64,000 bases of DNA from Oligoflexia bacterium (GCA_019694465.1 JAIBBV010000006.1:18843-82842); one strand, 5' to 3'. Counted from the stretch's first letter, positions 1,898 through 25,320 are shown. Numbers and translations are program-made. The notes: generated by a model not told the origin, from the sequence alone.

Positions 1898-1971
1898 GGT
1901 TTCTTTGATGTTGAAGCATTTACAGACACTTAGAGTCCGTTTCAAAGGCACCCCAGACAAGACATAATGGG

Positions 1972-2015
1972 CTCAAATTGCGAGCAAAGCGAAGCATTTT
2001 GCTCCATTTTGTGCG
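1972..2015 (+). repeat. copy 1 of a ~45-bp dispersed repeat with core gcgagcaaagcgaagc
   Basis: ctcaaattgcgagcaaagcgaagcattttgctccattttgtg. Related copies are at 4712-4760 and 25272-25320, all in the same orientation, each just downstream of a plus-strand gene. Confidence 0.55.
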
Positions 2016-2089
2016 GACTCTTCGCTGCCCATCTAGCGTCCACACTTTCCATAAATTTTATTGCTCCCTTTTATTAAGCAAGACCTATA

Positions 2090-4615
2090 ATGTGTCGATT
2101 TCTTTTGGAATTGATGCGACGCGCCCTATCTCTCATGCTATTGGCAGTTAGCTGCCTAATTACTCTCGCCACAGCTGCGCGAGCAGATTCCATTTCCGAT
2201 AATCCGATTGTCTTTGTTACCATGGTGCCAAATCCAGCGGACTTTGGAACATTAGCGGCGACATTTGGCAATCACACGGCTACTCCTTCTACAGCGGTGC
2301 GTGGGGGAGATTTGTGGATACGCTACCCGGATGGCTCTTTGAAAAATCTTACTAGTGCTGCCGGGTATGGGAATACTGGATTTCAGGGCGCTGGTGCCAT
2401 TGCTGTGCGGGATCCTTCCGTGCACTGGGATGGGGCAAAGGTAATCTTTAGCATGGTGGTAGGTGCACCGACTCAGCAATATCAACTTACTTCACATCGT
2501 TGGCAGTTATATGAAATTACTGGCTTGGGGGCCTCAGAAACTCCAGTAATTACGAAAGTTGCCGGTCAGCCTGCTAACTACAACAATATTTCTCCGACCT
2601 ATACCAGTGACGACTCCATCATATTTGTCTCGGATCGTCCGCGCGATGATACAGTACTGCATACATATCCGCAGCGTGATGAATATGAGTCATCGCCGGT
2701 CAATTCGGGGCTGTGGAAGCTAAATGTCGCATCGAGTGAATTAAAGCTGCTTGATCACGCTCCATCTGGAGATTTTAACCCGATCGTTGATAGTTTTGGT
2801 CGTGTAGTTTTTACGCGTTGGGATCATCTTCAGCGTGATCAGCAGAATGTTGGCGTAAGTTTTGGTGCATTTAACTACGAAAGTGAAGTTAGCAGCACTG
2901 CTTTATCATCAGCCGCAGAGGTGTTTCCCGAACCTAGATCGACGCTCGACCCCGACTACGTCTCAACTGTGAACTTGCACACATTTAATCAGTTCTTCCC
3001 GTGGATGATGAATCAGGACGGCACCGGACTTGAGACTCTCAATCATGTGGGCCGCCAGGAAATAGGGCTGTACTCGGAGCGAAGCTTTAACAACGATCCC
3101 AACGTTCAAGAGTTCTACGGACAGTACACGACTGGACAGAATCAAAATGAATTCACCATTTTCCTTCATATTAAGGAAAAGCCCACGCTTTCCGGCACGT
3201 ATGTAGGCACAAGTTGCCAGGAGTTTGGTACACACGCTAGCGGACAGATTATCTCTCTAACTGGAGCGCCCGGCCTGAATCCTGACAACATGCAGGTGAA
3301 CTACATTACGCACCCGGATACCGCGGGAGCGACGGACAATCCAAGTGCTAATCATTCTGGGTTGTACCGAGATCCACTACCACTTTCTAATGGTAAGCTA
3401 ATCGCCGCTCACACTAGCAATACAAGGCAAGATTCCAATATCGGTACGTCATCCGCGCCACTTTCGCGTTATGACTTTCGCCTAAAAGTACTTTCTCAAG
3501 GAGCAAGCTACTTTAGCGCAGGCAGTGCCTTGACATCTGGAATAACCAAGAGCATTAGTTTCTGGAATCCCGACACGTTAGTTACTTACAGTGGGCAGCT
3601 CTGGGAGCTGATGCCAGTCGAGCTTAAGAGCAGAAGCCGGCCAAGTGCTACAAGAGATGAATTGCCACCGGTCGAAGATTCTCTAATAAGTTCACTAAAT
3701 ATCGATGTGGCTGAGCTGGTAGCTTATTTGAAGGTGCAGAATTTGGCGTTGGTGGTTAGTCGAAATTTAACCATGCGCGATCGCAATGATCGTCAGCAGC
3801 CATCGAATTTACGGGTTACTGGTACAGACACACAGACGCTACCAAACTCGGGCACGATCTATGACATTTCATTTTTGCAGTTCTTTCAAGGTGATCTTAT
3901 TCGTGCTTATCAAAGTAGTAGCAGTGCTGGGCGCCGGGTCTTGGCTCAGCCCATGCATTCGGTAGCCGACGGGGTGAACATGGTAACCTCAGGAGCGCCA
4001 TTAGGGTCGGTTAAGCTTGGGGATGATGGTTCTATGGCAGCCTTCGTTCCGGCCGGGCGAGCTTTGAGTTGGCAGCTTACGGCTGAAGATGGTACTCCAG
4101 TTGTACGTGAGCGTTATTGGGTTACCTTTCAACCTGGCGAGATCCGGGTGTGCGCCTCTTGCCACGGAATAAATACCGCCGATCATATGGGCAACCCGGC
4201 TCCCCAAAATAGCCCACAGGCATTGGCAGCCTTACTTGCACATTGGAAGAACCTCCCGGCATCCTCAATCCCAAGTTATACACTTAAGGTAACTGCAAAA
4301 AAGAAGTCAACCCTGGAAAAATTTAGCGTTCTTGCTAGCGGTGGTAGTTCTTCAGCACTACTAGCCCTGCGCGCCAAACTTGGCACTTACTCCTGTAAAG
4401 GGTCTAAGAACTTTGCAAGTGGTAAGACCTCTAGAAAATTAAGTGGTAAATTCCCTTCTATTAAAGGGCTGGCCATTAAGTTTAGTCTTACGAACCAGGG
4501 CTCAACTGCAGCGCTTAAAAAGACAAGCCTTAAACTAAGCGGTCCTAGTGCCTTGAAGTTCAGCTCTAAAAAGTTGAGGTCCGCTTGTAGTGAGATGTTT
4601 GCTAGCTTCAAGTGA
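2090..4615 (+). CDS. secreted beta-propeller (PD40/TolB-like repeat) protein with a single CXXCH motif and a Lys-rich repetitive C-terminal tail
   Basis: N-terminal signal peptide (MCRFLLELMRRALSLMLLAVSCLITLATAARA). Repeated SPDG/FVSDR-like blocks typical of PD40 propeller blades. CASCHG at nt 4151-4168. The last ~110 aa are K/S/L-rich with reiterated K[FL]S units. Confidence 0.6.
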   Translation: MCRFLLELMRRALSLMLLAVSCLITLATAARADSISDNPIVFVTMVPNPADFGTLAATFGNHTATPSTAVRGGDLWIRYPDGSLKNLTSAAGYGNTGFQGAGAIAVRDPSVHWDGAKVIFSMVVGAPTQQYQLTSHRWQLYEITGLGASETPVITKVAGQPANYNNISPTYTSDDSIIFVSDRPRDDTVLHTYPQRDEYESSPVNSGLWKLNVASSELKLLDHAPSGDFNPIVDSFGRVVFTRWDHLQRDQQNVGVSFGAFNYESEVSSTALSSAAEVFPEPRSTLDPDYVSTVNLHTFNQFFPWMMNQDGTGLETLNHVGRQEIGLYSERSFNNDPNVQEFYGQYTTGQNQNEFTIFLHIKEKPTLSGTYVGTSCQEFGTHASGQIISLTGAPGLNPDNMQVNYITHPDTAGATDNPSANHSGLYRDPLPLSNGKLIAAHTSNTRQDSNIGTSSAPLSRYDFRLKVLSQGASYFSAGSALTSGITKSISFWNPDTLVTYSGQLWELMPVELKSRSRPSATRDELPPVEDSLISSLNIDVAELVAYLKVQNLALVVSRNLTMRDRNDRQQPSNLRVTGTDTQTLPNSGTIYDISFLQFFQGDLIRAYQSSSSAGRRVLAQPMHSVADGVNMVTSGAPLGSVKLGDDGSMAAFVPAGRALSWQLTAEDGTPVVRERYWVTFQPGEIRVCASCHGINTADHMGNPAPQNSPQALAALLAHWKNLPASSIPSYTLKVTAKKKSTLEKFSVLASGGSSSALLALRAKLGTYSCKGSKNFASGKTSRKLSGKFPSIKGLAIKFSLTNQGSTAALKKTSLKLSGPSALKFSSKKLRSACSEMFASFK

Positions 4616-4711
4616 AGAGAGTTAGTGTCCCGAGCCTACGAACTTGTCTCTTAAACCTATTTCCGACTCTGGACAAGAGAGCCCGCAACAAAGATTGGCT
4701 AGGCAAACCTG

Positions 4712-4760
4712 ACGGACTCGTATTGCGAGCAAAGCGAGGCAATACAACCGATTTTGTTAC
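4712..4760 (+). repeat. copy 2 of the ~45-bp repeat; contains the perfect inverted repeat tattgc(gagcaaagcgag)gcaata
   Basis: ctcgtattgcgagcaaagcgaggcaatacaaccgattttgttacg, about 100 nt downstream of the stop of the 841-aa gene. Confidence 0.55.
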
Positions 4761-4786
4761 GTACGTTAACTCTAAAATGGACAGTT

Positions 4787-10184: not shown

Positions 10185-13100
10185 CTAGCCTTTGCTTAAT
10201 GCATCGAGTTCCCTCTGTAGACGCACTAAATTTGGATGTCCCGGAAGCAAACGTAATGCTGATGCTACGTATGGCTTTGCTTCACCGAAGCGACGCCCAT
10301 CAACAAGGTGCAGAGCAGCATGTACGTATGGCTCTGGGTTCTCTGGATTGGCTTGGATACTACTTAGTAGAGCCTTGAGCGTCGCATCCTCTGTTCGTCC
10401 TGCCGCCGGGGCCTTGTGGGCTTCCACGAAGTAGCCCACCGTGAATGCTTCATTGAAGCAAGGAGTGTCCAATTCAAAGAAAAGGCGAGGTAGCGTATCT
10501 GCAAGCAGAGCCCTTAGACCGGCATAGTTTGCTCCAAGCCGCTGCTGTTGAGATTGGATGGCATTGGCGGCACGTGCGCATTCCTGTGCCAGATGCTTGA
10601 AGAATCCACCATTAGGCGTAATTTCATTAATTTCCAGGCCACTCTTCTCGCAAAAATGCCTATACCATTGAGGTGTGTAGCCTCCGTAAAAGTGGAAGGG
10701 CAGCTGATGCAAGCCAGAACCAAGTGGCGCAGTTAATAGTAGGGTTCCGCCCGGCTTAAGGATGCGAGAAATCTCACGCAAGGCGCCTATTGGATCGGGA
10801 ATATGCTCAAATACTTCAGTGCAAATTACTGCGTCAAATGTAGCATCTGGTACAGGTATACTAACGATATCTGATACATAATCAATGTGACCATAGTCTT
10901 TGGTGCCACCCAACTTTTCACCCTCGTACTGCTTGAAATCGTGAGTTTTATATTCGCAATGTGCGAATAAGTGGCGATAAGGGCAAGTGCCTGCACCCAC
11001 ATCTAATACTTTACTGCCGGCGGGAATGCGTTTGGCCTTCTCTTGGATCCAGCGATCTCTTCCGCGTTGGTTGAAATCATAAATCTCTTCAATCGGCACT
11101 TGAGCGCTTGGTCCTACCTCCAGTCCCGGAATATTCTCTAGAATTTGAGTGGTATTGCATGCCCGAGGCTGTTCACCACCTGCCAGCACTTTGCGTAGTT
11201 GCTCACGCCAAACTTCATAAGTTGGTCGCTCGGCATCAGCAACAGTGCTTTCCCAAAGTAGAGCATCCGCTGCTTGTAGCAATTGCTCTCGTGATAGAGA
11301 GCGACTCTTGATTGCTTGAACTTCTACATTACAAAGATGGGGTTCATGCGGCCATGAATTCTGTTGTATGGATACCTGATCAAATCCAAGTGCTGCTAGC
11401 GTTCTGCGGTAACGTTCTGGAAACCAGTGATCGACATGATAAGCCCAGGAAGCGGCTTGGTCTCCAGCTAAGTGACGCACAGTCCCCATCTTTACCCGCC
11501 AGTTTGGGTGTGACAGCAGGTTACGCGCAGCGCCTTCTAGATCGGGAGTCTCAATGTGTAGTTTTCCACCACACTTGAGTGCCTCATGCCATTTTATTAG
11601 CATAGCCAGGGCAGTAACTCGGCTGAAGTGTTCAAAAACATGGTGCAGCCGAATCTCGTCTACACTTTCCTTATTCACTACCAGACGCGTAATATCTGCA
11701 AAGATATCAGCACGTATTTGCATAACATTATGCTCACTGGGTGGATAATCCACGTTGATATAACCATCAAAGTGTTGCTCCCCGCATCCCAGGTGCAGAC
11801 GTAGTGGACTTCCAGTGGCCCATAGGCCGCGTGTTGTCAGTGCTTGGTTGAAGTTCTCGCCAGAGGCTACTGTTGTTGTGTGCACGGTGCTTTTCTCCTT
11901 TTTAGTATCTGTTTTAGTGCCAACGGCTGGCCACCAGGATCGATCCTCTGGGGGCGCAGAAGCTGGGAGACGGTATGGGTCCACGGTGATTAACTTTGTA
12001 ATCCACTCGGGAGTATGTATTCCGATGGTAGCGAGAGCTGACGATAGGCTCCAAAGTACCTTCCAGCCCCCTTGAATCCCGGGGACCTCAAGCAATTCTA
12101 CTAATTCAACAATTTCCGTTGGGAGCGCCTGATGATCCGGTGCGGAGAGTGCTTGAAGAGCTAAGGTACGGTCAATTGGAACAGATAGCGCGTCACTTGC
12201 TCCAAGCTTATCTAATACAGAAAGCAGAGTGGAGAACTTTTGTCTCCCGAAAAATGCATTTGTGTGTAGTAGAATGCAGATAAACCTTGCTGCGTCAGCC
12301 TTTGTTACTAAGGGTATATTAAGCTCTGTGAACAAGTACCGAATAATACTGCCAGTTCCTTGCGGTAGTAGGGCCTGTAGTTCTTTTTCGACGGTCTGGC
12401 ATTGCTCAGCCCACGCTATCCCATAGCCCGCATTGTGTGATTGATTGGCAACCGAGGCCTGTCTATGGCTCTCCAATGGTGGTGAAGGCCTAAGTAGAGC
12501 GCTTGGTTCATCATAGCGAGGTTCGACGCCACTATCTATGAAATTTAGTACCTGAGGAATTAAACTCTCAGTGGTATGTAGCGCCATTAGTTTCTTCCGA
12601 GCGGCCTCAGATATGTTACGTGCAAATTGCTTATCATTTTGTACGCGCTCAATGTGAGCAGCCAGCTGTTCTGGGTTGGATTTTGAGTAGAAAAGAATTT
12701 CCTTTCCGTCTTCAAATAGCGCCTTGGTTCGTGGCCTGAATTCTATTTCCCATGAAATTACTGGACGTGCGGCAGCCATACCATCTATGACTCGGCTAGG
12801 TAACATGCGGCCATATTGAGGAAGATTTACAACCGCACAGCCTTCAGTTAGCCCTTCGAGCCAAAGTCCATAACAGTCGCGTCGGATCGAACGTAGCACC
12901 CTCAAGTATTCAGGAAGCATACGTTGCTCGAATGGCACTTGCCCGCTGAGTTGTTGCTCTAAGGCCCGATGCAAATTGTCGTACATCGCAGGAAGCTTAG
13001 TGAACATCTCTGGTGATGAGTCTGGCCGCACGAGCAATTTGGATAGGCGTGAATGCGCAAGCCACTCTTTACGGTCACCGTAAAGAGCACCGTAAAAAAT

Positions 13101-13655
13101 AGCTTCGGACCGCTTGGGCGCTGAAACTTCGCGCTGAATATAACGGCTGGGTACCTTTGCATTTGATAGCCACATTGAAGGTAAAGTACCTGAGCTGTTA
13201 AATCGCTCTACATCTACCTCGTCTACGGCCAGTAAGTGTGTGGCAAAACGCAGATTTCGTTCGGTATTGGCGATGCGGCGCTTTGTCCCTTCTGGGTTGG
13301 TTGTAAATTCTCGAGGGTCAGTAGCGATCGACTCGCACAGAAAGCCAAGTCGGACTGGAGCGAGGGTTGAGAGCCATTCCAGAAAATTGTCGTCGTACTG
13401 GGAGTGGCCAATATCAAACCACACCATGTCAAAGCGTTTGTTCCCAATCAGATGACGGGCAAATGTAAGCCAGGATGGTCCTTGTGAAGAAGCGAACGTA
13501 GGATGGAAGAGAGAAGGAATAGTCAGAAAATCAATCCCATGAGCTTCGAAGCCCTCCTCGAATCCAAGTCCGGTTGGATACGACCAATGACTAGCATCTT
13601 GCCAGGTGCGAAATTCAAGAGGGATGAAGAGAACTGCTGGCTTCCGTGTCGTCAT
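10185..13655 (-). CDS. multidomain glycan-modifying protein: GT-B (GT1/GT4-like) glycosyltransferase + two class-I SAM-dependent methyltransferase domains + C-terminal TPR
   Basis: N-terminal region ends with a GT-B C-terminal signature (IDGMAAARPVISWEIEF...EDGKEILFYS...). Two separate MTase motif-I stretches (LHLGCGEQHFDGYINVD and LDVGAGTCPYRHL...LKPGGTLLL). TPR-like C-terminus. Start overlaps the stop of the upstream gene (ATGA). Confidence 0.7.
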   Translation of the reverse strand: MTTRKPAVLFIPLEFRTWQDASHWSYPTGLGFEEGFEAHGIDFLTIPSLFHPTFASSQGPSWLTFARHLIGNKRFDMVWFDIGHSQYDDNFLEWLSTLAPVRLGFLCESIATDPREFTTNPEGTKRRIANTERNLRFATHLLAVDEVDVERFNSSGTLPSMWLSNAKVPSRYIQREVSAPKRSEAIFYGALYGDRKEWLAHSRLSKLLVRPDSSPEMFTKLPAMYDNLHRALEQQLSGQVPFEQRMLPEYLRVLRSIRRDCYGLWLEGLTEGCAVVNLPQYGRMLPSRVIDGMAAARPVISWEIEFRPRTKALFEDGKEILFYSKSNPEQLAAHIERVQNDKQFARNISEAARKKLMALHTTESLIPQVLNFIDSGVEPRYDEPSALLRPSPPLESHRQASVANQSHNAGYGIAWAEQCQTVEKELQALLPQGTGSIIRYLFTELNIPLVTKADAARFICILLHTNAFFGRQKFSTLLSVLDKLGASDALSVPIDRTLALQALSAPDHQALPTEIVELVELLEVPGIQGGWKVLWSLSSALATIGIHTPEWITKLITVDPYRLPASAPPEDRSWWPAVGTKTDTKKEKSTVHTTTVASGENFNQALTTRGLWATGSPLRLHLGCGEQHFDGYINVDYPPSEHNVMQIRADIFADITRLVVNKESVDEIRLHHVFEHFSRVTALAMLIKWHEALKCGGKLHIETPDLEGAARNLLSHPNWRVKMGTVRHLAGDQAASWAYHVDHWFPERYRRTLAALGFDQVSIQQNSWPHEPHLCNVEVQAIKSRSLSREQLLQAADALLWESTVADAERPTYEVWREQLRKVLAGGEQPRACNTTQILENIPGLEVGPSAQVPIEEIYDFNQRGRDRWIQEKAKRIPAGSKVLDVGAGTCPYRHLFAHCEYKTHDFKQYEGEKLGGTKDYGHIDYVSDIVSIPVPDATFDAVICTEVFEHIPDPIGALREISRILKPGGTLLLTAPLGSGLHQLPFHFYGGYTPQWYRHFCEKSGLEINEITPNGGFFKHLAQECARAANAIQSQQQRLGANYAGLRALLADTLPRLFFELDTPCFNEAFTVGYFVEAHKAPAAGRTEDATLKALLSSIQANPENPEPYVHAALHLVDGRRFGEAKPYVASALRLLPGHPNLVRLQRELDALSKG

Positions 13656-14197
13656 GAAACTCCCTTAACAGCAGTAGTTCGGTATCCATCGTCACGCTGT
13701 GATACAATGGGATCAGTGACTGGCCACCAAAGTTTTAGGTCCGGATCATTCCAGTATAATGTGAACTGCCCAGCGCGGTTGTAGTATGTGGTCTGCTTGT
13801 AGGCAAAGACTGCCTGCTCTGATAGCACCAAATGGCCGTTGCCAAAATGTGGAGGCACCAATACTTGAGAGCGATTTGTTTCAGAAAGGGTGAATGCCTG
13901 CCATTTTCTATACTGAGCGGACTTTGAGTCGTTGTTGATCACTAGTAAGTACAGAGATCCGACAAGGCAAGAAATTAGCTTCCAGGTTTCAGCGTCACCA
14001 TGCACACCACGCAGTACATTTTTGTTGGACACTGAAATGTTGTCTTGGCAGAAATGCTGATCGATTCCGGCCTCGCGGTAGAGCTTCTCGTTGTAGAGTT
14101 CGACATGCCGGCCGCGGAAATCCTCGAATTGTGTTGGTGGGCTAATCAGTAACACCCCATCCAAGTTAGTCTTTTGCACGTTAAGCTGGGTCGACAT
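13652..14197 (-). CDS. dTDP-4-dehydrorhamnose 3,5-epimerase family (RmlC-like cupin)
   Basis: FEDFRGRHVE, QDNISVSNKNVLRGVHG, KLISCLVGSLYLLVIN, VLVPPHFGNGHLVLSEQAVFAYKQTTYY and WNDPDL match RmlC motif by motif. Confidence 0.75.
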   Translation of the reverse strand: MSTQLNVQKTNLDGVLLISPPTQFEDFRGRHVELYNEKLYREAGIDQHFCQDNISVSNKNVLRGVHGDAETWKLISCLVGSLYLLVINNDSKSAQYRKWQAFTLSETNRSQVLVPPHFGNGHLVLSEQAVFAYKQTTYYNRAGQFTLYWNDPDLKLWWPVTDPIVSQRDDGYRTTAVKGVS

Positions 14198-14516
14198 GTT
14201 GCTAATATCCTGAAAATGTTGAGGTTTCTACGTGTGCGCGGCGCGTGGAACCTCTTTAGTTTGATGCAGCAGACCGGGGGAAGAAACGGGTAAATTTCAT
14301 TGCTAGCCTAGCAAAGCTCTCAATCTTTCCAGGTGTTTAGACAGGGGGCCTGACTGAGCAGCAGCAATCAAGAGATTCATGAATGTCACTCGCGGCCTAG
14401 TCGCATCGAAATTATGGGAGAGCAGTCCCTACAGATCAGTGGAAGTTGGGTTAGGTGATGGTTTGGAGCATGAGCTGTGAATCACACCAATTTGTAGCGC
14501 AAATTATTGAAAAAAT

Positions 14517-15776
14517 ATGAATCAGCCGCTCGTCAGCATTTTAATGCCTATCTATAACTGCGCTAAGTCAGGCTTGCGCGATGGCAAGTGCTATTTGAAT
14601 CATGCTTTGGAGTCGCTGCTGGCTCAAAGTTATAAAAACTTTGAGTTGCTGATTCTGGATAACAGATCCGAGGATAGTACGCCGGACATCTGTCGAAAAT
14701 ATGCCAGTGTGGACGCGCGTATTCAATTCATCACTGATACCCAGAAGCGAACAATTGACGATGCCTTTGCATATCTACCTGAGAAGATGCGCGGCGTCTA
14801 TTGCATGTGCGCGAATGATGATGACCGTTACCACCCGGAATTTGTTAGTCGCCTCGTAGAATTCTTGGAATCCAATAAGGAAATTGATCTAGTTTACCCT
14901 AACTGTGACTTTGTTGACTCAGTCGATCAGGTAACAAATGCTCGAGTAGTTACTAGCGACAGTGCTTATCAAGCGCAGCAGTCCGCCTTCACCAATTTTT
15001 GCCGCTATTCGCAACGTCGCAATCCATTACCCTTTGTCTTCGGCATGTATCGGGCTGATGTATTCAAGAAAATTCAGCCTACCACGGCTTTTGATGTGTG
15101 GGGTGCCAATGTTGATAACCTACTCATCCTAAAATTCTTTTTGATGGGATTTCGCTCAGCATTTTTGGACCAAGTCCTATTTTATTACCGCGCCAAACAT
15201 CGTCCATTGGCTCCCGAGGATCAAAATCGCGCGCGGTTCCCAAGAGATTTTCCGGACTTTGCTGCTCCAGTTGAGGTATGGTTCTACTACGTGCGGCATC
15301 AACTATATTTCAGAATAGCAGTGTTGAGAGCTCTCAAACAGTACAACACATTTTCACCAATACAGGCGCAGATCGCGCGAGCTGTCTTGAACGAATCGCT
15401 GATTCGTCACTCAATGAATCTAATGGAATGGCTAGCGAAGGACGAGACAAAAGTCGATGATGTTCAAAACGCTGGTCGTTTTGCAGCGATTCGTGAATTC
15501 GCGCAAGCAAAATTAACCGGCTTGGCTACGTTAGAGAGCCGACTTAGTGCTTCCGATTACGCACAAATTGATTCAAATCTTGCTTACGCTAAAATGCGCT
15601 CTATTGCTGCTCAGGAGCTTCTACAGCGTTTTGATTCTGTGTTGCGTTTTGCCTGGAACAAGATCGACAATAAAGAGTCTAGTGTTATTGCCGAAGTGAT
15701 GAAATTGATGTCAGAGGAACTTGAGTGCTTCCCAAAAGTTGTTGCCGCGAGTGAAGCGAGCTGTAATAACTTTTAG
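14517..15776 (+). CDS. family-2 glycosyltransferase (GT-A)
   Basis: N-terminal VSILMPIYNCAKS...LESLLAQSYKNFELLILDNRSED... is the GT2 signature. The last ~18 codons lie inside repeat copy A. Confidence 0.7.
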   Translation: MNQPLVSILMPIYNCAKSGLRDGKCYLNHALESLLAQSYKNFELLILDNRSEDSTPDICRKYASVDARIQFITDTQKRTIDDAFAYLPEKMRGVYCMCANDDDRYHPEFVSRLVEFLESNKEIDLVYPNCDFVDSVDQVTNARVVTSDSAYQAQQSAFTNFCRYSQRRNPLPFVFGMYRADVFKKIQPTTAFDVWGANVDNLLILKFFLMGFRSAFLDQVLFYYRAKHRPLAPEDQNRARFPRDFPDFAAPVEVWFYYVRHQLYFRIAVLRALKQYNTFSPIQAQIARAVLNESLIRHSMNLMEWLAKDETKVDDVQNAGRFAAIREFAQAKLTGLATLESRLSASDYAQIDSNLAYAKMRSIAAQELLQRFDSVLRFAWNKIDNKESSVIAEVMKLMSEELECFPKVVAASEASCNNF

Positions 15777-15966
15777 CGCTCGTCCGCCGGAGGCGGACCC
15801 CCGGAGGGGAAATAATTATAGCGGCTCTCTAAAGGGATACAGCTGCGCCGCAGGCGCGACATTAAGATATATCTATTACAATCAAACTCATCATCAAATG
15901 CCAGTACGTCACTGTTTTATATGCTTCCTTTCTCGCGACAATTACTTTTGGGAGTCGCTATAGAAT
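15722..15966 (+). repeat. copy A (~245 bp) of a two-copy dispersed repeat; carries a 63-bp insertion relative to copy B
   Basis: Shares gcttccc-aaagtt-ttRccgcgag...gtaataacttttagcgctcgtc...ggcgcgacattaagatat-tctattac...ttttgggagYcgctatagaa with 21671-21852. Overlaps the 3-prime end of the GT2 CDS and abuts the ATG of the next gene. Confidence 0.7.
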
Positions 15967-17116
15967 GCGCCGTTGTGCCCTCATTATTGCAGTCTTTATC
16001 TGCCTAGCGGATGTTTCTGCCTCTCCAAAGGCAAATTCATTTAAGACATCTTTGACCTATAAAAACCTCAACTTTAGCGCTCCGACAGACATCCAAGTTG
16101 CCTCAGGATCTGAGAAGCGCATGTTTGTGGCGGAACGGGCTGGCCGGATATTGGCATTTGGTCCATCCAAGAGCGCCTCTTCCTCTAGTGTATTTTTAGA
16201 TATTAGTGATCGTGTGACATCTGCTGCTGATGAGGAGGGACTATTAGGGTTTGCATTTCATCCCGACTACTCCACAAATGGGTATATTTTTGTAAATTAT
16301 ACAGCTGCCGGGCCATTACGAACAGTTATCTCGCGCTTCCAGCGTAGCGCAAGCAATGCAGCAGTTGCGGACTCCAGCACTGAGTTAGTGTTACTAGAGT
16401 TTGATCAGCCATTTTCTAATCATAATGGTGGGCAGTTGGCATTTAGTCCGGGTGGCTATTTGTATATTGCTACTGGCGATGGTGGATCAGCCGGTGATCC
16501 TAACAATAATGCCCAATCATTAGGTACTTATTTAGGGAAGATTTTACGCATTGATGTAGACTCAACTGATAGCGGCAAGAACTACGCTATACCTTCTGGA
16601 AATCCCTTTGTGAGTAACTCATCCGCCAAAGCAGAAATTTATGCCTACGGTTTTCGTAATCCCTGGCGGATTAGCTTTGACTCAGTCACCAAGAAATTGT
16701 GGGCAGCGGATGTGGGACAGGATGCTCGCGAGGAGATAGATCTTGTGGCGAAAGGGAAAAACTACGGCTGGCGGATTAGGGAGGGCAGTGCCTGTTACAA
16801 TCCAAACACTGGCTGCCGAAGTAGTGGATTAAGTAAGCCAACTTATGAGTATGGTCACGCTTTAGGCGAGTCCATAACGGGTGGATACGTGTACAGGGGA
16901 AAGAAGTTTCCGGAGCTAGTGGGCTACTATATATATGCTGATTTTATTAGTGGTACGATTTGGGCGCTCTCCTACCCCAAGGGCAAGATGGCCGCGAAGT
17001 CAACTCGCCTAGTAGATACGTCCTTATTGATATCTACATTTGGACAGAGTCGCTCAGGGGAGCTTTACTTGGCCTCGTATGGCGATGGCAGAATCTATCA
17101 GCTGGCGCGGAAGTAG
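15965..17116 (+). CDS. PQQ-dependent soluble glucose/sorbosone dehydrogenase (GSDH, YliI/Asd family), secreted
   Basis: Signal peptide. GLLGFAFHPDY, FSNHNGGQLAFSPGGYLYIATGDGGSAGDP, ILRIDVD and AYGFRNPWRISFD are hallmark GSDH beta-propeller motifs. Confidence 0.8.
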   Translation: MRRCALIIAVFICLADVSASPKANSFKTSLTYKNLNFSAPTDIQVASGSEKRMFVAERAGRILAFGPSKSASSSSVFLDISDRVTSAADEEGLLGFAFHPDYSTNGYIFVNYTAAGPLRTVISRFQRSASNAAVADSSTELVLLEFDQPFSNHNGGQLAFSPGGYLYIATGDGGSAGDPNNNAQSLGTYLGKILRIDVDSTDSGKNYAIPSGNPFVSNSSAKAEIYAYGFRNPWRISFDSVTKKLWAADVGQDAREEIDLVAKGKNYGWRIREGSACYNPNTGCRSSGLSKPTYEYGHALGESITGGYVYRGKKFPELVGYYIYADFISGTIWALSYPKGKMAAKSTRLVDTSLLISTFGQSRSGELYLASYGDGRIYQLARK

Positions 17117-17373
17117 GCCGCGTCAAGCTAGAGTGCAAAGCAAGATCAAGTAATATTTGATTAGAATACGCGGGAAGGGTAGAAATATCGCAGGATTGGC
17201 GCGTGGAAGATTCTTAAGGCAATTTTGTATAGGCTGAGGCCGACCTAGAACCCCTTAAGTCGGGCTCAAGAACGCCTGGATGGCGTTCACGCGAACTGAA
17301 ACGCGAGCGTAAGTTTGCGATGCGACGCGAAGTCTCACGCTGGTTTCGCGCGAGACGTAGCTTGGAGCATTCT

Positions 17374-17399
17374 CAAAACCACCACGGATGGTGGTTTTG
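17374..17399 (+). terminator. perfect 11-bp stem / 4-nt loop hairpin (caaaaccacca cgga tggtggttttg) between GSDH and the 883-aa gene; terminator or attenuator-like, no U-tract
   Basis: Read directly from the sequence. Lies 43 nt upstream of the ATG at 17442, whose RBS is gaggt. Confidence 0.4.
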
Positions 17400-17441
17400 A
17401 GTCAGTCTCAGGCCGTGACGTAACAGAAGAGGTAATTCTGT

Positions 17442-20093
17442 ATGCCCTCGCCGTCTTTACCATCAAAGCCAGAACCTGAGCGGCATGACACAGCTCCTAC
17501 TTTTGTGGAGCGCTCGACGCCTGCCGCAAGAGTGCCGACCGTGCCTGTAATAGATGAAAGACTTGCCTCTGCATCGGGATCCGAACGAGCTTTTTGGTTC
17601 GAAGTTAGGCGTGAGGTTATTGGTGATATACACCAGTCTCTTTTCTGTCGAATTAGTTCAGTTCGAACCATGGCGGCCTCAGAAATGATTAGGCTACTCG
17701 TGGAGATGCGTCTTACACCTGATCGTATCCCAGACATGAGAGGCTTGGCAGCTTTGGCCGCAAGGAAGCTAATTCAGCAGGCCGCAAACCCTGGCTTTCT
17801 GTGCGCCAAGCCTGAACTGCCTAAAGCGGGTCATGTATTTAGGTATATTTCGGCAACAACGCCAAAGGTCCTTTTTAATGATCGGGATTTTTCGGCGCCC
17901 GGAGCATTTTTCCAGCTTTATCAACCAAATGAAAAGGGTGTCTTAGCGGTTTGGCAGGATTCATCACCTGTGCGTGATAGAGCAAGTCTGGACGAGGTCT
18001 TTGTGTTTCTGGCTAAGCTTGAAGGTTTTGGCAGCGAGATGGTTAGACAAGTCGCTCCTGAGTTGGAAGTGGCATGTGGCAGTGAAACCTTAGGAAATAT
18101 TAGCTTCTATCTTAGTCCAGAGATCATTTCATTTAAGGCAGATGGAGCGCACAGCTTTGCCAGGCATTACTGTTTTAAGGTGCCATTTGGTGCTTTGCCA
18201 CATACCAAGGAGGAGATGCTGGCCAGGCAATTGGATATTGAACAGGGCCGACTTGTCAGGGCTACAGTCAATGTTAGTGGTCGTATAGATCCAGGATTCC
18301 TAGCCTGGGCTCAAGGTGCGGGAGTCTTAAGTGCAGGCCCTATTCCAGACGTCGAGATTCTTTACACACTTAGATTGCCAAGCGGAGCGCCATATACAAT
18401 CGCATTAAAAGAGTCCCGGCGCGGCTCCCAGGCAGAGCCAAATCCACTACATTTGTATAAGCCTGAGGACTGGGAGACAGTAAGACACCTTGGAAATTAC
18501 ATGCTGAACCCTGGGAATAGGGCACGCCTTGAGATTTTTTGTGACTTCAGGGGAGCTGCTGCTCAGGCTGCCCAGACCATGCCCAAAGTTATAGATAATG
18601 CGGAGGATGTTAAAGCCTACCTGGCTCTGCGTGAGCAATGGACTAAGGGGGTACACCAGGAGTTGTTAGCGGCGCATCGTGAATTCCGTGCGCCGATCGA
18701 GGTCGATTGGCTGGAGCAGCGTTTTTCAGAAGCGAGTACCTTTAATTCTATAGTCCAGGAGCGTTTAGACGTAATCCCTGCTAAATATCCATTCCGAACA
18801 GCTGGCTTTTTCCAACTAAATGTCGAGGAGCGTGCCGAGTTTGTTAGGCACTACGTGCCAATAATCTTCAAGGTGTGTGCCGAGGAGCGAGCCCGCATTG
18901 CCTCAGAGCAGCAGAGTGATCAGTGTTTGATGCGAGAGAGACTTGGCTATCGAGGTCCTGAGGAGGGATATCCCCTATCGCTTGATTACATGATCATGGA
19001 CATGATTATTGATTATAGAGCGCGAAAGTCATTCGTGCAGAATCGAGCCAGAGAACGTGGGCTGCGTCCCGAAGAAGTTGTAATCCCGGAACACATTGGA
19101 CGTAGATATGATCGACCGCAGCGCTTTATGGGTGTTGGTGATATCCCTAGAATATTATCTGAACGTGGCTCGCAGAGGACAGTGGAGGCCAGATTCTTTG
19201 ATCCAAAGAGTCAGCAAGTTGAAACTGTAACTGGCGAAACTGCAGTTCGAGATAAATTAAATTGTATTCTCAATGAGAATGTAGCGCGAGCACGAGTTGT
19301 AATTGGTGAATTCAAGAATTCCGCTCAATATCGACAGGGGCATGAACATCGATCTTCTCCTTGGCATAATGGGCCGCGTTTAGGGGTTTTGGTGTTGGAG
19401 GGAATTTCCCGCTCCTGTACTCAATCAGAAAATCAGCTAAATGATGCAATTTCTGCCACGGCACGTGCCCTGGCACGCCTCACAATGTCGCGGGCAGGCG
19501 AACCGAAAGTGGCACGGGAGCGAATAGGGGCAGAGGCAGCCAAGCATGACAGGCTAATTGGTACCTTACGTGAGGCTGCTGATAGATCCAAGATTGCGCT
19601 CGTTGAACTAACCAATTATGTGTTGCGCGACTATAGTCAGACTGCCTTTGTGCGTGTCGAGGAAATACTTGATTACGATGTAATTCGTTTCGCCTGTTCA
19701 ATTGGTGCCGATTGTCGCCCTATACTATCAGAGGAGCAAATGAAGCGTGAAGGGCGGACCCGGATGACACACTCGGAGCAGCTTGGCGGGAAGAATATGT
19801 ATGGTGGGGGATTTCTTCTCGTAGGTAGGCATTTTGAAGTGTTTCACGATGCGCGCGAGTGGAGGGCATTTGCGGACGGGTTTGAGCAACGTGAGCTACA
19901 GCCCTGGCGTGCCTTAAAGATTACAAATGATTCAGGACACTACTTCCCTGGACTGAATACTCTTCAGTTCACATCAAACTGCATCTTCAAGGAGTTAGAT
20001 GTTATTGGGATTGATCATTCAGGATGTGTCGTTGCTGACGCTCTTAGTCCAGGGATTAGGACTGCGAGCCTGATAAGACTAGTAGACCTATAG
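17442..20093 (+). CDS. large orphan hypothetical protein (883 aa) with a Ser/Pro-rich N-terminus
   Basis: Long uninterrupted ORF with a good RBS. No signal peptide or TM segment and no recognisable catalytic motifs. Lies between the two repeat copies. Confidence 0.55.
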   Translation: MPSPSLPSKPEPERHDTAPTFVERSTPAARVPTVPVIDERLASASGSERAFWFEVRREVIGDIHQSLFCRISSVRTMAASEMIRLLVEMRLTPDRIPDMRGLAALAARKLIQQAANPGFLCAKPELPKAGHVFRYISATTPKVLFNDRDFSAPGAFFQLYQPNEKGVLAVWQDSSPVRDRASLDEVFVFLAKLEGFGSEMVRQVAPELEVACGSETLGNISFYLSPEIISFKADGAHSFARHYCFKVPFGALPHTKEEMLARQLDIEQGRLVRATVNVSGRIDPGFLAWAQGAGVLSAGPIPDVEILYTLRLPSGAPYTIALKESRRGSQAEPNPLHLYKPEDWETVRHLGNYMLNPGNRARLEIFCDFRGAAAQAAQTMPKVIDNAEDVKAYLALREQWTKGVHQELLAAHREFRAPIEVDWLEQRFSEASTFNSIVQERLDVIPAKYPFRTAGFFQLNVEERAEFVRHYVPIIFKVCAEERARIASEQQSDQCLMRERLGYRGPEEGYPLSLDYMIMDMIIDYRARKSFVQNRARERGLRPEEVVIPEHIGRRYDRPQRFMGVGDIPRILSERGSQRTVEARFFDPKSQQVETVTGETAVRDKLNCILNENVARARVVIGEFKNSAQYRQGHEHRSSPWHNGPRLGVLVLEGISRSCTQSENQLNDAISATARALARLTMSRAGEPKVARERIGAEAAKHDRLIGTLREAADRSKIALVELTNYVLRDYSQTAFVRVEEILDYDVIRFACSIGADCRPILSEEQMKREGRTRMTHSEQLGGKNMYGGGFLLVGRHFEVFHDAREWRAFADGFEQRELQPWRALKITNDSGHYFPGLNTLQFTSNCIFKELDVIGIDHSGCVVADALSPGIRTASLIRLVDL

Positions 20094-20157
20094 AGAACTA
20101 AGACGGCTCCAACTAATTTTATCAGAAAGTTGAGCCGTCCTAAGTTCGATGCAATGA

Positions 20158-20658
20158 TTAGTAGACACTGTTGGTCGATGTGGATGTATCTTTCGATTTA
20201 GCGCTATCTTGTCGGGTGGTGCTTGCCACTCCGAGTAGGTCACTATTCCGACTCTGACGGCTTACTTCCAAAGTCTTGGTTAGTGTTCCTTCGGCAGGGC
20301 TTTCGGTATTCATGCTGCCCTTAATCTTGGCGCCATCCTCTACGCAAATGCGGGGAGCAGTAACGTTCCCAAGCACTTTACCAGAACTGTGAACGATGAC
20401 TTGTTCACTACCAAAAAGGTCGCCTGTAACTTCGCCCTCCACATGAATGACCACACCATAGATGTGAGCGCGTACTTTACCTGTCTTTGCAACCGTTACT
20501 ATGTTCTTTTTGAGGTTGATGGTTCCTTCTACTGAGCCCTCGACTAAAATGTCCTCGTCGCCAGTAATTTCACCTTGAACTGAAATTGATACGCCTATTG
20601 TCGCCTGAGTTTTTGAAGGAGTCGTGGTTCCGCCAGCTCCTTGATTATTTTCCCACAT
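20158..20658 (-). CDS. bactofilin (DUF583) cytoskeletal polymer protein
   Basis: Repetitive beta-helical segments (VQGEITGDEDILVEGSVEGTINLKKNIVTVAKTGKVRAHIYGVVIHVEGEVTGDL...) with disordered N- and C-terminal tails. Confidence 0.75.
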   Translation of the reverse strand: MWENNQGAGGTTTPSKTQATIGVSISVQGEITGDEDILVEGSVEGTINLKKNIVTVAKTGKVRAHIYGVVIHVEGEVTGDLFGSEQVIVHSSGKVLGNVTAPRICVEDGAKIKGSMNTESPAEGTLTKTLEVSRQSRNSDLLGVASTTRQDSAKSKDTSTSTNSVY

Positions 20659-20687
20659 GCTGCTGCTCCATTGTTAAATCGACATCG

Positions 20688-21629
20688 CTACATTTGGATT
20701 CGATCAAGCCAATTCTCGATGCGCGTAAGGGTCCAAAAAATGCCCACCAAGGAGAGGGACCAAAAACTAAGTAGGGCCACGAAGATAGACCCCGATGAAA
20801 CGATGTCTCGCTCCGAGTATCCATCGATAAATTGTGACCAACGAGGTGCGCAAGTTTCATTCCCTAAATTCACCTCTTTATCTAGCTTAGAAAGCTGACC
20901 TAGTAATTGGCCGAGCCCAGGCGCGTGCCCGGCATTACTCGCTGAAATTGTTGTACGAATGAGGCGTAGGAGCCGCCGATAGTGTGCTGACCGCATGCGC
21001 CAAAGGCAACGCAGCGGACTTGCCAAGTAATTGCAGAATTTACGAAGTGGGGGCGGCGAGTTGCTCAAACGTCCGCTTAGCAGCGACAAAGCTAGCTCCG
21101 CGGTGCTGCGGCATAGGATCGCTTCGAATGTCTTAGACCTCTCAGGTGTAGCTAATTGAATCGGATCAACTTTTATATTTCCTGTTCGATCAAGGTAAAT
21201 GTTTTCAGCATTTATGAGGAAGCCGTCTACATTGTTGCTCAGTAGGAAGCGTGATGCTTTAAGTACGGCAATACAAATTTGTAACGACTCAGAAACACTG
21301 AAAACAGTACAGCGAGACAAGTCGGCCAGGCTAATCCCGCGCAGGGACTCGCACGAGATAGCCAAAATGTTGTCTATTTTGTGAACCTCATATGGACAAA
21401 GCACATGTGGATTCTTTAATACACTGAGCTTAGCTACGATCTGCTTAATATCATCTTCACAGGTGTCACCGATTGAAGTGCGATCAATTAATTTTAGACC
21501 AACATAGACTTGTAGTGATTTTAGAGCGTTGCGTTCCTTGTGATCTGAGGCAAGGTAAAGGGCAGCAATCTCATTATGTCTTAGACATTCGAGCAGTTCG
21601 AATCTGTCAGCAAGCAGCGCATTTGTCAC
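20688..21629 (-). CDS. membrane-anchored protein-kinase-like protein, predicted catalytically dead (pseudokinase), C-terminal TM helix
   Basis: Kinase subdomain-like blocks are present (ALK for the VAIK Lys; LKNPHVL; ILAISCESLRGISLADL; LINAENIYLDRTGNIKV). It lacks the Gly-rich loop, HRD and DFG. Hydrophobic C-terminus IFVALLSFWSLSLVGIFWTL. Confidence 0.45.
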   Translation of the reverse strand: MTNALLADRFELLECLRHNEIAALYLASDHKERNALKSLQVYVGLKLIDRTSIGDTCEDDIKQIVAKLSVLKNPHVLCPYEVHKIDNILAISCESLRGISLADLSRCTVFSVSESLQICIAVLKASRFLLSNNVDGFLINAENIYLDRTGNIKVDPIQLATPERSKTFEAILCRSTAELALSLLSGRLSNSPPPLRKFCNYLASPLRCLWRMRSAHYRRLLRLIRTTISASNAGHAPGLGQLLGQLSKLDKEVNLGNETCAPRWSQFIDGYSERDIVSSGSIFVALLSFWSLSLVGIFWTLTRIENWLDRIQM

Positions 21630-21670
21630 AGGTGGGAGCTCCGCTTAATTATGATGCTAGCTGTTAGTTA

Positions 21671-21852
21671 GAGCGCTTCCCGAAAGTTATTACCGCGAGC
21701 AGAACGAGCGGTAATAACTTTTAGCGCTCGTCGGCCAGAGGCGCGACATTAAGATATGTCTATTACGTTCAACTTATCATCCTATGCCGGTACATCAATG
21801 TTTTAGATGCCCCGTTCTCTCTTCGCGATTATTTTTGGGAGCCGCTATAGAA
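21671..21852 (+). repeat. copy B (~182 bp) of the two-copy repeat; contains an 11-bp inverted repeat gttattaccgc(N11)gcggtaataac
   Basis: Aligns with 15722-15966 (see copy A). Intergenic, upstream of the pseudokinase gene start. Confidence 0.7.
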
Positions 21853-21958
21853 GTTACAGCTGGAAATCGCGTAAATTCTGGAGTTTAGCCTATGTTGCAG
21901 CCCCTCGAGGCGCGATGATAGTTCTTAGACGCCAGGTATTTGGAATTTCAAATGCGAA

Positions 21959-23053
21959 TCACACTAGGAGTAAGCTTGGCACCTCCAGTGCGCCATCATA
22001 ATTGGATATCGAAATTGGCCAGCTTGGACTAGGCACTTGTTCCGCCCAGCCTTGAATAGCGCCTTCACTAACAAGCAATCTAGATTCAAGGCGATACTGC
22101 GCAGCAACATTCAATATCTCGTTAATAATCAATGAGCGTAACTGATCCTGCGTGAGCTTTTCCCGTTGGCCCAAAGCGTTGAAGCCCCACTGCTCGCGAT
22201 ACATTCGGATAGTAGGCTCGATAATGCCATTATAGTCACGCCATGTAGCTTGATCGGCAGCGCGTGCGCGTTCACTTTCGAAGCTGTTAAATGAGTACAG
22301 CTCAGACCAAAGTCGTACTGCAGCCCTACCAGCGCCGAAGAATGCATCTGCTTCCTCCTGTAGATTTGCTCTGCGCTTAGCCATTTCCTCTCCAAAGCCT
22401 GACAGCGAGTTAGGATCGCACCAACGCTGACATTGAAATACCGTTAAGTAATCCATGTCGCCGAGAATAAACACAATTTGAACCGGATAGTTTAACTTTT
22501 GCTGAATGTCTCTCAGAGCACTCCAGCCCTTTATTTTTGTTCTATCACTGAAGTTGTCGACGCGTACTGTTTCGCCTGGTGCGAGCTTGTTTAATCGCCA
22601 GGCATCAAAGCCAGCAATAACATCCGTATTCTTCTCCAGACACTGAGATACTGCGATGGTTATAGGCCGGCGCTCCTGTCTAGCTGCTTCTATGGCTTTT
22701 AGGACAGCTCCCCAGGTGGTATTCACAGTTGGGTATTTGGTCAATCGACTCAAATCAACAGTTAAATTCGCGGCGTCCTCTGATGCCCAGACCTGCGGGA
22801 ATGCTGCCCGTAAAAAGTCTGTTTCTTTAAGGGCTTCATCGAAACGTCCTGCAGCTACTGCATTGCTCCACCCTTGTATGAAGCGGGCCGCACGTTGGGA
22901 AGCGCTCAGTTGCTGCCAGACATTATCGGGGCAGGTTCTTGTAAGCGAGGCCGAAGCAATTACCGCTTCAGCCCATTGCAGGTCCTCAGCTGCAACGCTT
23001 CGCACTTGTACGGCTTGTGCTCTAAGTGATTGAACGTAGAGTTCTTTGAACAT
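21959..23053 (-). CDS. hypothetical protein (365 aa)
   Basis: The ORF extends to 23206, but the ATG at 23053 (MFKELYV...) has an AGGA RBS 8 nt upstream. No recognisable domain. Confidence 0.5.
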   Translation of the reverse strand: MFKELYVQSLRAQAVQVRSVAAEDLQWAEAVIASASLTRTCPDNVWQQLSASQRAARFIQGWSNAVAAGRFDEALKETDFLRAAFPQVWASEDAANLTVDLSRLTKYPTVNTTWGAVLKAIEAARQERRPITIAVSQCLEKNTDVIAGFDAWRLNKLAPGETVRVDNFSDRTKIKGWSALRDIQQKLNYPVQIVFILGDMDYLTVFQCQRWCDPNSLSGFGEEMAKRRANLQEEADAFFGAGRAAVRLWSELYSFNSFESERARAADQATWRDYNGIIEPTIRMYREQWGFNALGQREKLTQDQLRSLIINEILNVAAQYRLESRLLVSEGAIQGWAEQVPSPSWPISISNYDGALEVPSLLLV

Positions 23054-23266
23054 AACTATCCTTCGCGCTTCCTGAAGAGCGTGGCTGTTACTGGATGTGC
23101 AGCAGGTAAAACTACCTAACTGATTGCCAGAATTAAAAAAGAAATATGTAAGCGGGAAAGTAGATTTGGTGCTTAGAGCACCATATGCGCGTGATGACTT
23201 GCGCAACCAAAGGACATGTCAGAGTAAATGAATGACATGCAAGTGAGAATAACAGTGTGAGTAGAC

Positions 23267-24139
23267 CTAGTCAAGATGGGTCTGAGGACTTGGATTTCTA
23301 ATTGAGCTCAACACGACGCTACTCATGATCAATAGTCCGCCAAGGAGCTGCGCTGCAAGCAATTGCTCATGATAGATCATAGCGCCAAAGCTCATTCCAA
23401 TTAGAACTTCTAGCGTTAGAACAATACTGCCCAGACTAGGTGCTATTCGTCCAAATGCGTAGTTTAATAAAAAGGCATTCATGCCCTGCTGAAATACAAG
23501 TATTAAGCCAATTTTCCAGCCCAAATTGTTGATGGCTAGTAGCCACTCAGCTATTAAGCCTTTGCTTTGCACCCATAGCAGTAGGAGCGCGGCGGAAATT
23601 GCGTTTCCTAGACAGGCCAATTGTGTATCCCTTAAGTTGCTAGCATGAAGTGGTCGAAGGATTTGAGCTAATGAAATGAAAAGCCCAGAGAGGATTGCGC
23701 ACATGGCAGCATAGTCGAACGTGAAAGACCCGCCTGTTAGCAGCAACACCCCTAATGAGGCGAGTAGTAGGCCTAGAAAAAGAGAAAGGTTGGCCTTCTC
23801 CCGCCATACAAATACTGACCATGCCCCGCCCCATGGAAGAGCGCTCAAAGCGGCTGCATTGGCAAGACTACCATGCTGTACAGCCTCGAAGAAGAAGTAT
23901 CCCCCCAAGCACCACCCGAGCGCTCCACGCGCCAACAAAATTCCAATATCCAGTCTTGGAACTGATTCTAAGCGAAGTGTTGGTAGGAGGCACAGGCATC
24001 CAGCTGTCGCCTGCGTGAGTAGCCATGCCGGCGGGGCAAAGGAAATACCAAATTCACGAGTTAGGCAGCCCGTGCCGGCGAAACTAGTGGCGACTATGCA
24101 TAGGGCTAGAATGGGAAGAGTACTTGAATTGGCCTTCAT
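23267..24139 (-). CDS. EamA/DMT superfamily transporter (about 10 TM segments)
   Basis: Two tandem 5-TM halves and Gly/Leu-rich hydrophobic stretches typical of EamA exporters. Confidence 0.65.
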   Translation of the reverse strand: MKANSSTLPILALCIVATSFAGTGCLTREFGISFAPPAWLLTQATAGCLCLLPTLRLESVPRLDIGILLARGALGWCLGGYFFFEAVQHGSLANAAALSALPWGGAWSVFVWREKANLSLFLGLLLASLGVLLLTGGSFTFDYAAMCAILSGLFISLAQILRPLHASNLRDTQLACLGNAISAALLLLWVQSKGLIAEWLLAINNLGWKIGLILVFQQGMNAFLLNYAFGRIAPSLGSIVLTLEVLIGMSFGAMIYHEQLLAAQLLGGLLIMSSVVLSSIRNPSPQTHLD

Positions 24140-25200: not shown

Positions 25201-25271
25201 ACGCTTTAGATAAACCTAGCTTCATCCACTTTTTGTCAAAACTCTCTCGCGCAGGGTTTATATTTGGCGGG

Positions 25272-25320
25272 CTCGTATCGCGAGCAAAGCGAAGCAATCC
25301 GCGTAATATTGTTAAGCACT
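25272..25320 (+). repeat. copy 3 of the ~45-bp repeat
   Basis: ctcgtatcgcgagcaaagcgaagcaatccgcgtaatattgttaagc, about 70 nt downstream of the Lrp/AsnC gene stop. Confidence 0.55.

Follow-up and report, generated by a model that had tools for sequence, protein, structure and literature searches.

Several classes of short non-coding repeats are well known in bacterial genomes, among them the Correia elements of Neisseria (CREE/NEMIS), the REP (repetitive extragenic palindromic)/BIME (bacterial interspersed mosaic element) and ERIC/IRU sequences of proteobacteria, the Rickettsia palindromic elements (RPE), and the pairs of miniature inverted-repeat transposable elements (MITEs) that flank some gene units. 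Here, we describe a repeat found twice in a 64,000-nt stretch of an Oligoflexia bacterium genome (GCA_019694465.1, JAIBBV010000006.1:18843-82842), referred to below as the window. The two copies, named A and B, bracket a 5.7-kb block of four genes, and copy A contributes the 3' end of a family 2 glycosyltransferase (GT2) gene. With a probability of about 0.6, we regard A and B as two copies, old and diverged, of a mosaic palindromic repeat that is MITE-like and non-autonomous, and this is best read as a repeat family of Bdellovibrionota that had not been described previously. Nothing relevant on MITEs in Bdellovibrio was found in the literature.

Correia elements are small and non-coding, have terminal inverted repeats of about 25-30 nt, lie between genes or over gene ends in either orientation, and occur as long and internally deleted forms side by side; they can also change the 3' ends of open reading frames (ORFs) and sit directly upstream of start codons. 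The repeat of the window is like them in all these respects, and possibly in its TA flanks. However, there is no sequence similarity between them, and the element described here is larger (182-300 nt), has extra internal copies of its terminal motif, and showed no match to an integration host factor site when inspected by eye. With REP/BIME and ERIC/IRU sequences it shares a construction in which one short motif alternates in orientation, with linkers in between, an intergenic position that is often after a gene, the ability to form long mRNA hairpins, and the lack of an ORF. Unlike the REP unit, its motif is not self-palindromic and has no GTAG-type head, and REP sequences are typically very abundant, whereas only 2 copies were present in 64 kb. 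A REP/BIME system with its RAYT enzyme was accordingly rejected on the basis of the non-palindromic unit, the copy number in these 64 kb, and the lack of a Y1/HUH transposase domain (RAYT) in the window. As in RPE, a palindromic repeat is read within a protein-coding gene, but here it gives only a 17-residue C-terminal tail and a stop codon, not an in-frame internal insertion. Finally, in MITE-flanked units, such as integron mobilization units and the MITE pairs around class 1 integrons in Acinetobacter and Enterobacter, two direct MITE copies bracket a few kb of genes, as observed in this locus; the locus differs from them in its old and diverged copies, in flanks where no duplication of the target was seen, and in bracketed genes that are ordinary chromosomal ones, conserved in a relative.

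Results

Two diverged direct repeats in the window

Copies A and B, of 244 and 182 nt, are direct repeats whose positions are listed in Table 1. BLAST within the window aligned positions 15723-15795 with 21671-21743 (85% identity over 73 nt, E 2e-18) and positions 15852-15965 with 21739-21852 (81% over 115 nt, E 2e-24), and both segments were also aligned by MAFFT. The existence of an alignable direct-repeat pair around the block, proposed in an original prediction made from the sequence alone, was thus confirmed at a level far above chance. The overall identity was 82% (151 of 184 aligned columns), the longest exact run was 22 nt, and the edges of the homology were sharp at both ends. The 33 mismatches comprised 22 transitions and 11 transversions. 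Two element-specific 25-26-mers, searched with up to 3 mismatches, matched the window solely at A and B and gave 0 matches in shuffled sequence. In agreement, a covariance model of the 5' module, run over the whole 64 kb with filters off, found no third copy in the window.

Copy B contained at least two stop codons in all six frames, indicating that no reading frame is conserved across the copies. An 80-aa ORF that runs across copy A is not conserved, and its comparison with 1.84 billion representative proteins retrieved no real homolog; the single marginal match (E 6.5e-4, in 8 stretches) is probably due to low complexity and is uninformative. Rfam gave no relevant match at E ≤1 in window positions 14000-24000 or in the contig that carries the third copy described below, and a consensus scan showed no promoter-like or terminator-like site inside A or B, with totals below the shuffle expectation.

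A third copy in another genome

One genome from each GTDB species was scanned with a degenerate 21-mer that represents the 5' terminal repeat, and a match was found in a 1,984-bp contig (L009) of a metagenome-assembled genome (MAG) named 'uncultured Bdellovibrionales bacterium' (CAZJXY01, SRP173033_co3_101). This copy, C, was 84.7% identical to A over 111 nt and 87.7% identical to B over 73 nt, also carried the 3' terminal repeat, and was scored 105 bits by the covariance model. The search of other genomes that had been suggested along with the original prediction therefore yielded one further copy, with the same 5' and 3' ends as A and B. It lies between divergently transcribed GT87 and AAA_14/DUF4143 genes, and these flanks have no counterpart in the window. 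Since the setting is unrelated, the boundaries of the element are intrinsic to it and do not derive from the GT2 gene and the sugar dehydrogenase gene (GSDH) that adjoin copy A.

In the 5' module, the identities were 82% for A and B, 85% for A and C, and 86% for B and C, so that C is at least as close to A and to B as these are to one another. The AT-rich core, on the other hand, is common to A and B only (83%, versus 38-39% with C). Shared ends with a swapped core are a common pattern among MITE subfamilies. Copy C also holds the segment that B lacks (70% identical to that of A), and this indicates that the length difference is a deletion in B; the 63-bp GC-rich insertion in A that had been postulated earlier was therefore not borne out. 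At positions 905-954 of its contig, copy C additionally repeats part of the 5' terminal motif and of the hairpin loop in inverted orientation (AGCGCTTCCCAAAA and GCGAGCGGAGCGAG in reverse), which suggests a nested or rearranged second element inside it.

Two element patterns, one for each collection, gave 0 matches in genome contigs and metagenome contigs, and two element patterns likewise gave 0 matches in viral contigs; distant blastn searches of the plasmid and phage collections found no match. The covariance model of the hairpin module detected no further copies across 19 loci. Ten loci from a second metagenome scan, based on the 3' end (L010-L019), matched only the 19-22-nt pattern, were also missed by the covariance model, and were discarded as chance matches, as was one locus of the genome scan (L008) that matched the search pattern only.

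Organization of the element

The element is a mosaic of one motif of about 28 nt, repeated in alternating orientations around an AT-rich core. The consensus of this terminal motif is about AGCGCTTCCCRAAAGTTATTRCCGCGAG. An inverted copy of the 5' arm lies 11 nt beyond it, and the two form a hairpin of about 59 nt, hairpin 1, whose consensus structure was taken from columns 5-63 of the three-copy alignment (A5). In the long form, represented by A and C, the order is terminal motif, inverted copy, GC-rich hairpin, forward copy of the outer part of the motif, AT-rich core, and inverted 3' copy. The terminal motif hence recurs inside both A and C; in A, positions 15817-15834 are an internal inverted copy of the 3' terminus and pair with positions 15945-15962 (83% complementary). 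Copy B has lost about 60 nt (roughly 56-63), the internal forward copy of the motif included. The inverted repeat that had been noticed in B is exact, with perfectly complementary arms separated by an 11-nt spacer.

The terminal inverted repeats, which the earlier reader had not noticed and which offer the best indication of the nature of the element, are about 28 nt long (22 of 28 positions by eye in A). They were clearest in A and C, with a complementarity of 86-87% over 22-23 nt (23 nt and 87% in C); those of B were missed by the repeat finder and were recognized by eye and in the fold. In the minimum-energy folds of both A and B, the 5' and 3' ends pair with each other, so that the pairing spans the whole element.

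Table 1. Positions of the repeat copies, their parts and the neighboring genes (window coordinates unless a contig is named).
Feature	Position	Strand	Basis
Copy A, long form, 244 nt	15722..15965	+	Alignment with B and with the L009 copy; three-way alignment
Hairpin 1 of A: 5' terminal repeat and adjacent inverted copy	15723..15781	+	Inverted pair 15734-15748 / 15760-15774
GC-rich hairpin GTCCGCC-GGA-GGCGGAC	15782..15798	+	Found in A and L009; fused or altered in B through the deletion
Segment missing from B, present in L009	15796..15851	+	Alignment
3' terminal inverted repeat of A	15932..15965	+	Pairs 15730-15751 / 15932-15953, 86% complementary; fold
Copy B, deletion derivative, 182 nt	21671..21852	+	Alignment, BLAST
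Hairpin 1 of B, perfect 14-nt arms	21671..21729	+	21683-21696 / 21708-21721, 100% complementary
Copy C, about 300 nt	L009, roughly 1149 to 850	-	Alignment with A and B
GT2 glycosyltransferase gene, 419 aa	14517..15776	+	Pfam PF00535, translation
GSDH (PQQ-dependent sugar dehydrogenase), first gene of the bracketed block	15965..17116	+	Pfam PF07995
Rest of the block: 883-aa protein (+), bactofilin (-), 313-aa kinase-like protein (-)	17442..21629	mixed	Pfam scan, gene order as in L001

The genes next to the copies

The GT2 ORF ends in ...EELECFPKVVAASEASCNNF*, and the codon for E403 begins at position 15723, placing 17 codons and the TAG stop (15723-15776) inside copy A, with the stop codon in the 3' arm of hairpin 1. 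The proposal that repeat A encodes the end of this gene was thus correct, the length of the tail being 17 codons plus the stop rather than about 18 codons. The NCBI annotation contains the identical 419-aa product (P0001). The two nearest homologs (P0002 and P0003) are proteins of 722-726 aa with 42% and 40% identity, contain two GT2 domains joined by a linker, and are both encoded in O-antigen-like clusters where methyltransferase genes follow. The significant homology stopped at residue 309 of the window protein, and the C-terminal extension was collinear in the MAFFT alignment with the linker of the homologs up to the element boundary; among 2000 shuffles, 24 reached the local score of this linker in the case of P0002 and 393 in that of P0003. 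A tblastn search with both proteins found no second GT2 domain anywhere in the window, including the region to the right of B. Because the nearest homologs carry a second GT2 domain, it is possible, but weakly supported, that the gene was truncated at the element from a two-domain ancestor. The GT2 gene is the right edge of a polysaccharide cluster (10185-14197) with an RmlC-type epimerase and a 1156-aa glycosyltransferase-methyltransferase fusion, and this cluster appears to stop abruptly at the element.

On the other side of copy A, the homology with B ended at position 15965, and this last homologous base is the first base of the GSDH ATG, as had been predicted. This start codon is supported by a signal-peptide-like N-terminus, shared with a homolog (P0019) of 77% identity. 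A GGGAG sequence is found at positions 15950-15954, 10 nt upstream of the ATG and inside the 3' terminal repeat; as GSDH begins directly after the 3' end of the element, its nearest Shine-Dalgarno-like motif is element-borne. An adjacency of GT2 and GSDH genes in distant relatives (L002-L005) was considered as an orthologous junction and discarded, since the GT2 there is different and unrelated.

Copy B proved to be intergenic, as expected. It is located 41 nt upstream of the GTG start of the kinase-like gene and 106 nt downstream of the stop codon of a 415-aa ORF, both on the minus strand. The orientation of the element is independent of that of the genes. Copy A separates the end of one gene from the start of the next on the same strand, copy B is flanked by a divergent start and a convergent end, and copy C is flanked by two divergent starts.

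The bracketed block and its counterpart in a relative

The four genes between the copies were found in the same order, as GSDH, an 869-aa protein, bactofilin and the kinase-like gene, in a 5,690-bp contig of a relative (L001, Logan SRR23459707). The GSDH protein of this relative is P0019, and the coding DNA has about 71% nucleotide identity. The GC content was flat across the block and equal to that of the flanks, and there is no tRNA gene in the window. A Pfam domain scan, done on window ORFs of at least 150 aa with overlapping ORFs omitted, revealed no transposase, integrase, recombinase or reverse-transcriptase domain. Given the flat GC content, the conservation of the block in the relative, and the lack of a tRNA gene or a recombinase in the window, the view that the repeats are the footprint of an insertion or recombination event around the 5.7-kb block was not supported, and the four genes are most likely an ancestral, ordinary part of the chromosome. 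Island att sites and integron attC sites were rejected on similar grounds, as the window has no tRNA gene, integrase or IntI, the GC content is flat, and the cargo is conserved.

No similarity to the repeat was seen in the 168 nt that precede the GSDH gene of the relative. The comparison with an empty site, advised with the original prediction, hence gave a partial answer: the relative keeps the block without the repeat in these 168 nt, but it is distant. If the repeat is neutral, the identity of 82% between A and B, against about 71% for the orthologous coding DNA, would make the repeat younger than the split of the two lineages and the block older than the repeat. The contig of the relative contains exactly the four-gene block, starting 168 nt before GSDH and ending about 52 nt upstream of the kinase-like start, near the position of B in the window. 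Repeats in the genome of the relative too could account for contig ends at these points; the end sequences had no match to the other sequences compared. A second contig from the same accession (L006) carries an ortholog (63%) of the 415-aa gene found to the right of B, followed by a different gene and with no repeat. Gene order differs between the two genomes at many places nearby, and this breakpoint next to B therefore carries little information.

Within the block, the 883-aa protein (17442-20093) has no Pfam family, and the 313-aa protein (20688-21629), previously called a pseudokinase, gave only a sub-threshold Pkinase match (E 0.015, 15 bits); both genes are conserved adjacent to bactofilin in the relative.

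Discussion

Some of the properties expected of a MITE were observed in this element. It is small and has no coding capacity (182, 244 and about 300 nt), and it has terminal inverted repeats (86% complementary in A and 87% in C, with the ends of B paired in the fold). Three copies are known, at three unrelated sites in two MAGs. The mismatch spectrum of A and B fits an old neutral decay, and we also counted in favor the sharp edges of the homology, an element orientation that does not follow that of the genes, and the presence in the genome of at least one other family of short dispersed intergenic repeats, with four copies in the window. In the mechanism that we infer, the element would have spread in trans through a transposase that binds the terminal motifs, an enzyme for which no gene was found in the window. 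As the sequence itself shows, the GT2 ORF now extends into the element and stops at the TAG that the element itself provides. The bracketing of the four genes would most likely be incidental, for example the result of two nearby insertions. Lending a 3' end to a gene, as copy A does, is an ordinary consequence of such elements.

Several observations weigh against a MITE-like origin. Two copies 6 kb apart and in the same orientation in 64 kb are not expected from the random dispersal of a low-copy element. No target-site duplication was recognized at the copies: if the element is defined as GAGCGC...CGC, TA is found on both sides in B and C, but the left flank of A is TT, and A and B share TATAGAA beyond this end. 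The exact termini can be placed only to within a few nt. A transposase gene flanked by matching ends was not encountered; the scanned window ORFs include no transposase, and there was no other terminal-repeat match in the window. The conservation of the 5' module at 82-86% across two MAGs could reflect host-level selection on the structure. In addition, the empty site is that of a distant relative, where the lack of the repeat rules out an anciently conserved leader and nothing more.

Selection on structure is central to another explanation, in which the repeat is a host-maintained module of the REP/BIME or ERIC type, or a structured RNA, whose hairpin is kept for a role as single-stranded RNA or DNA, e.g., as an mRNA 3' stabilizer or a processing or protein-binding site, and which is not currently a transposon. 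We consider this unlikely. Hairpin 1 was paired in 93.5% of the cells across the three copies, versus 32-46% when the partners were slid, and two pairs showed AU/GU/GC series; nevertheless, covariation among the three sequences was no higher than in the shuffle control, where 301 of 500 replicates reached the observed value. The one-sided transitions in the main stem, five in number, all produce G.U on the plus strand and A.C on the minus strand, an asymmetry with a two-sided p of about 0.06 on these 5 events, and the folding energies of the whole element were about equal for both strands. The 5' module was as conserved within as between genomes, and a hairpin-tip motif, GCGAGYRRARCGAR, occurred five times in the window, always on the plus strand and in 4 of 5 cases just downstream of plus-strand genes, but this motif was defined post hoc from the same sequences. 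Furthermore, copy B is antisense to both neighboring genes, and the lack of promoter-like or terminator-like sites, of Rfam matches, and of further copies of the hairpin module in the 64 kb argues against such a role. The related proposal, that a regulatory or terminator module had been duplicated and had come to be read as coding sequence, stood in part: the module is transferable and in A was captured as the 3' end of the GT2 gene, but a gene-specific leader or terminator does not agree with three copies at three different positions, with neither a promoter or terminator site nor an Rfam match. 

Less probable is a composite MITE-flanked unit, in which the direct copies moved the four-gene block or acted as recombination substrates that placed the block and truncated the GT2 gene. 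The same-orientation copies bracket exactly the gene set conserved in the relative, whose contig ends near the repeat positions; the right junction, where the 415-aa gene adjoins the block, is not conserved there; and the second GT2 domain of the homologs is missing from the window, with weak linker similarity reaching the element boundary. Against this, no matching target duplication was found outside the left end of A and the right end of B, the block and its flanks have the same GC content, the many nearby breaks of synteny deprive the right junction of weight, and the 5' modules of A and B are no closer mutually than to C. Moreover, copies that are 82% identical and share no exact run beyond 22 nt are old and would make poor substrates for homologous recombination, no remnant of the second GT2 domain lies to the right of B, and the linker similarity was not significant for the second homolog. 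It is somewhat more doubtful still that the 5' module, i.e., the hairpin of about 59 nt plus the GC hairpin, is a strand-specific unit, serving either as a single-stranded DNA hairpin for an HUH-type enzyme (IS200/IS605- or RAYT-like) or as a functional RNA; the direct pair could then move the block of bactofilin, kinase-like and GSDH genes, and the Oligoflexia and Bdellovibrionales, both little studied, would harbor a mobile-repeat system that has not been described. An origin tied to this locus is very improbable, whether B is a local segmental duplication of the GT2-GSDH intergenic region or the pair represents attL/attR sites, integron attC sites, or the template and variable repeats of a diversity-generating retroelement. 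The copies are close and direct, and one overlaps the 3' end of a gene, as a variable repeat would, but this origin is already contradicted by copy C, which has the same boundaries in an unrelated context in another genome. The hairpin also appears to depart from the R''/L''...L'/R' layout of attC. The retroelement was rejected because mismatches at adenine were only 8 of 33 (adenine in B) or 10 of 33 (in A), and no reverse transcriptase domain was found among the scanned ORFs.

The chief value of reading A and B as copies of a MITE-like repeat is for annotation. It accounts for the odd 17-residue tail of the GT2 protein and for a 244-nt structured sequence where GSDH would have a normal upstream region, and the four bracketed genes should not be labeled an island. 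The three aligned copies, with defined ends, are a first seed for a repeat family in uncultured Bdellovibrionota. Repeats of this kind break up assemblies built from short reads, and in polysaccharide gene clusters they can indicate where rearrangements occurred.

Other observations in the window

A second family of dispersed intergenic repeats (D2), of about 60-80 nt, was found at positions 1965-2019 (+), 4710-4764 (+), 25265-25319 (+) and 55894-55973 (-), with the core CCTGACGGGCTCGTATTGCGAGCAAAGCGARGCAATAC...ATTTTGTTACGCAC. The tip of its hairpin, GCGAGCAAAGCGAG, resembles the loop of hairpin 1 in A and B; since the covariance model gave D2 only 10.4 bits, a relationship between the two families is unproven. 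Positions 60120-60260 contain tandem degenerate GGY/CGY-rich repeats (D1) with periods of 9-27 nt inside an ORF (60082-60849), and these point to a Gly/Arg-rich low-complexity protein segment. An ORF on the minus strand (57991-58620) encodes a Cas4-like PD-(D/E)XK nuclease, with no CRISPR context seen, and an 841-aa protein encoded at positions 2090-4615 (+) matched the middle domain of hydrazine synthase alpha.

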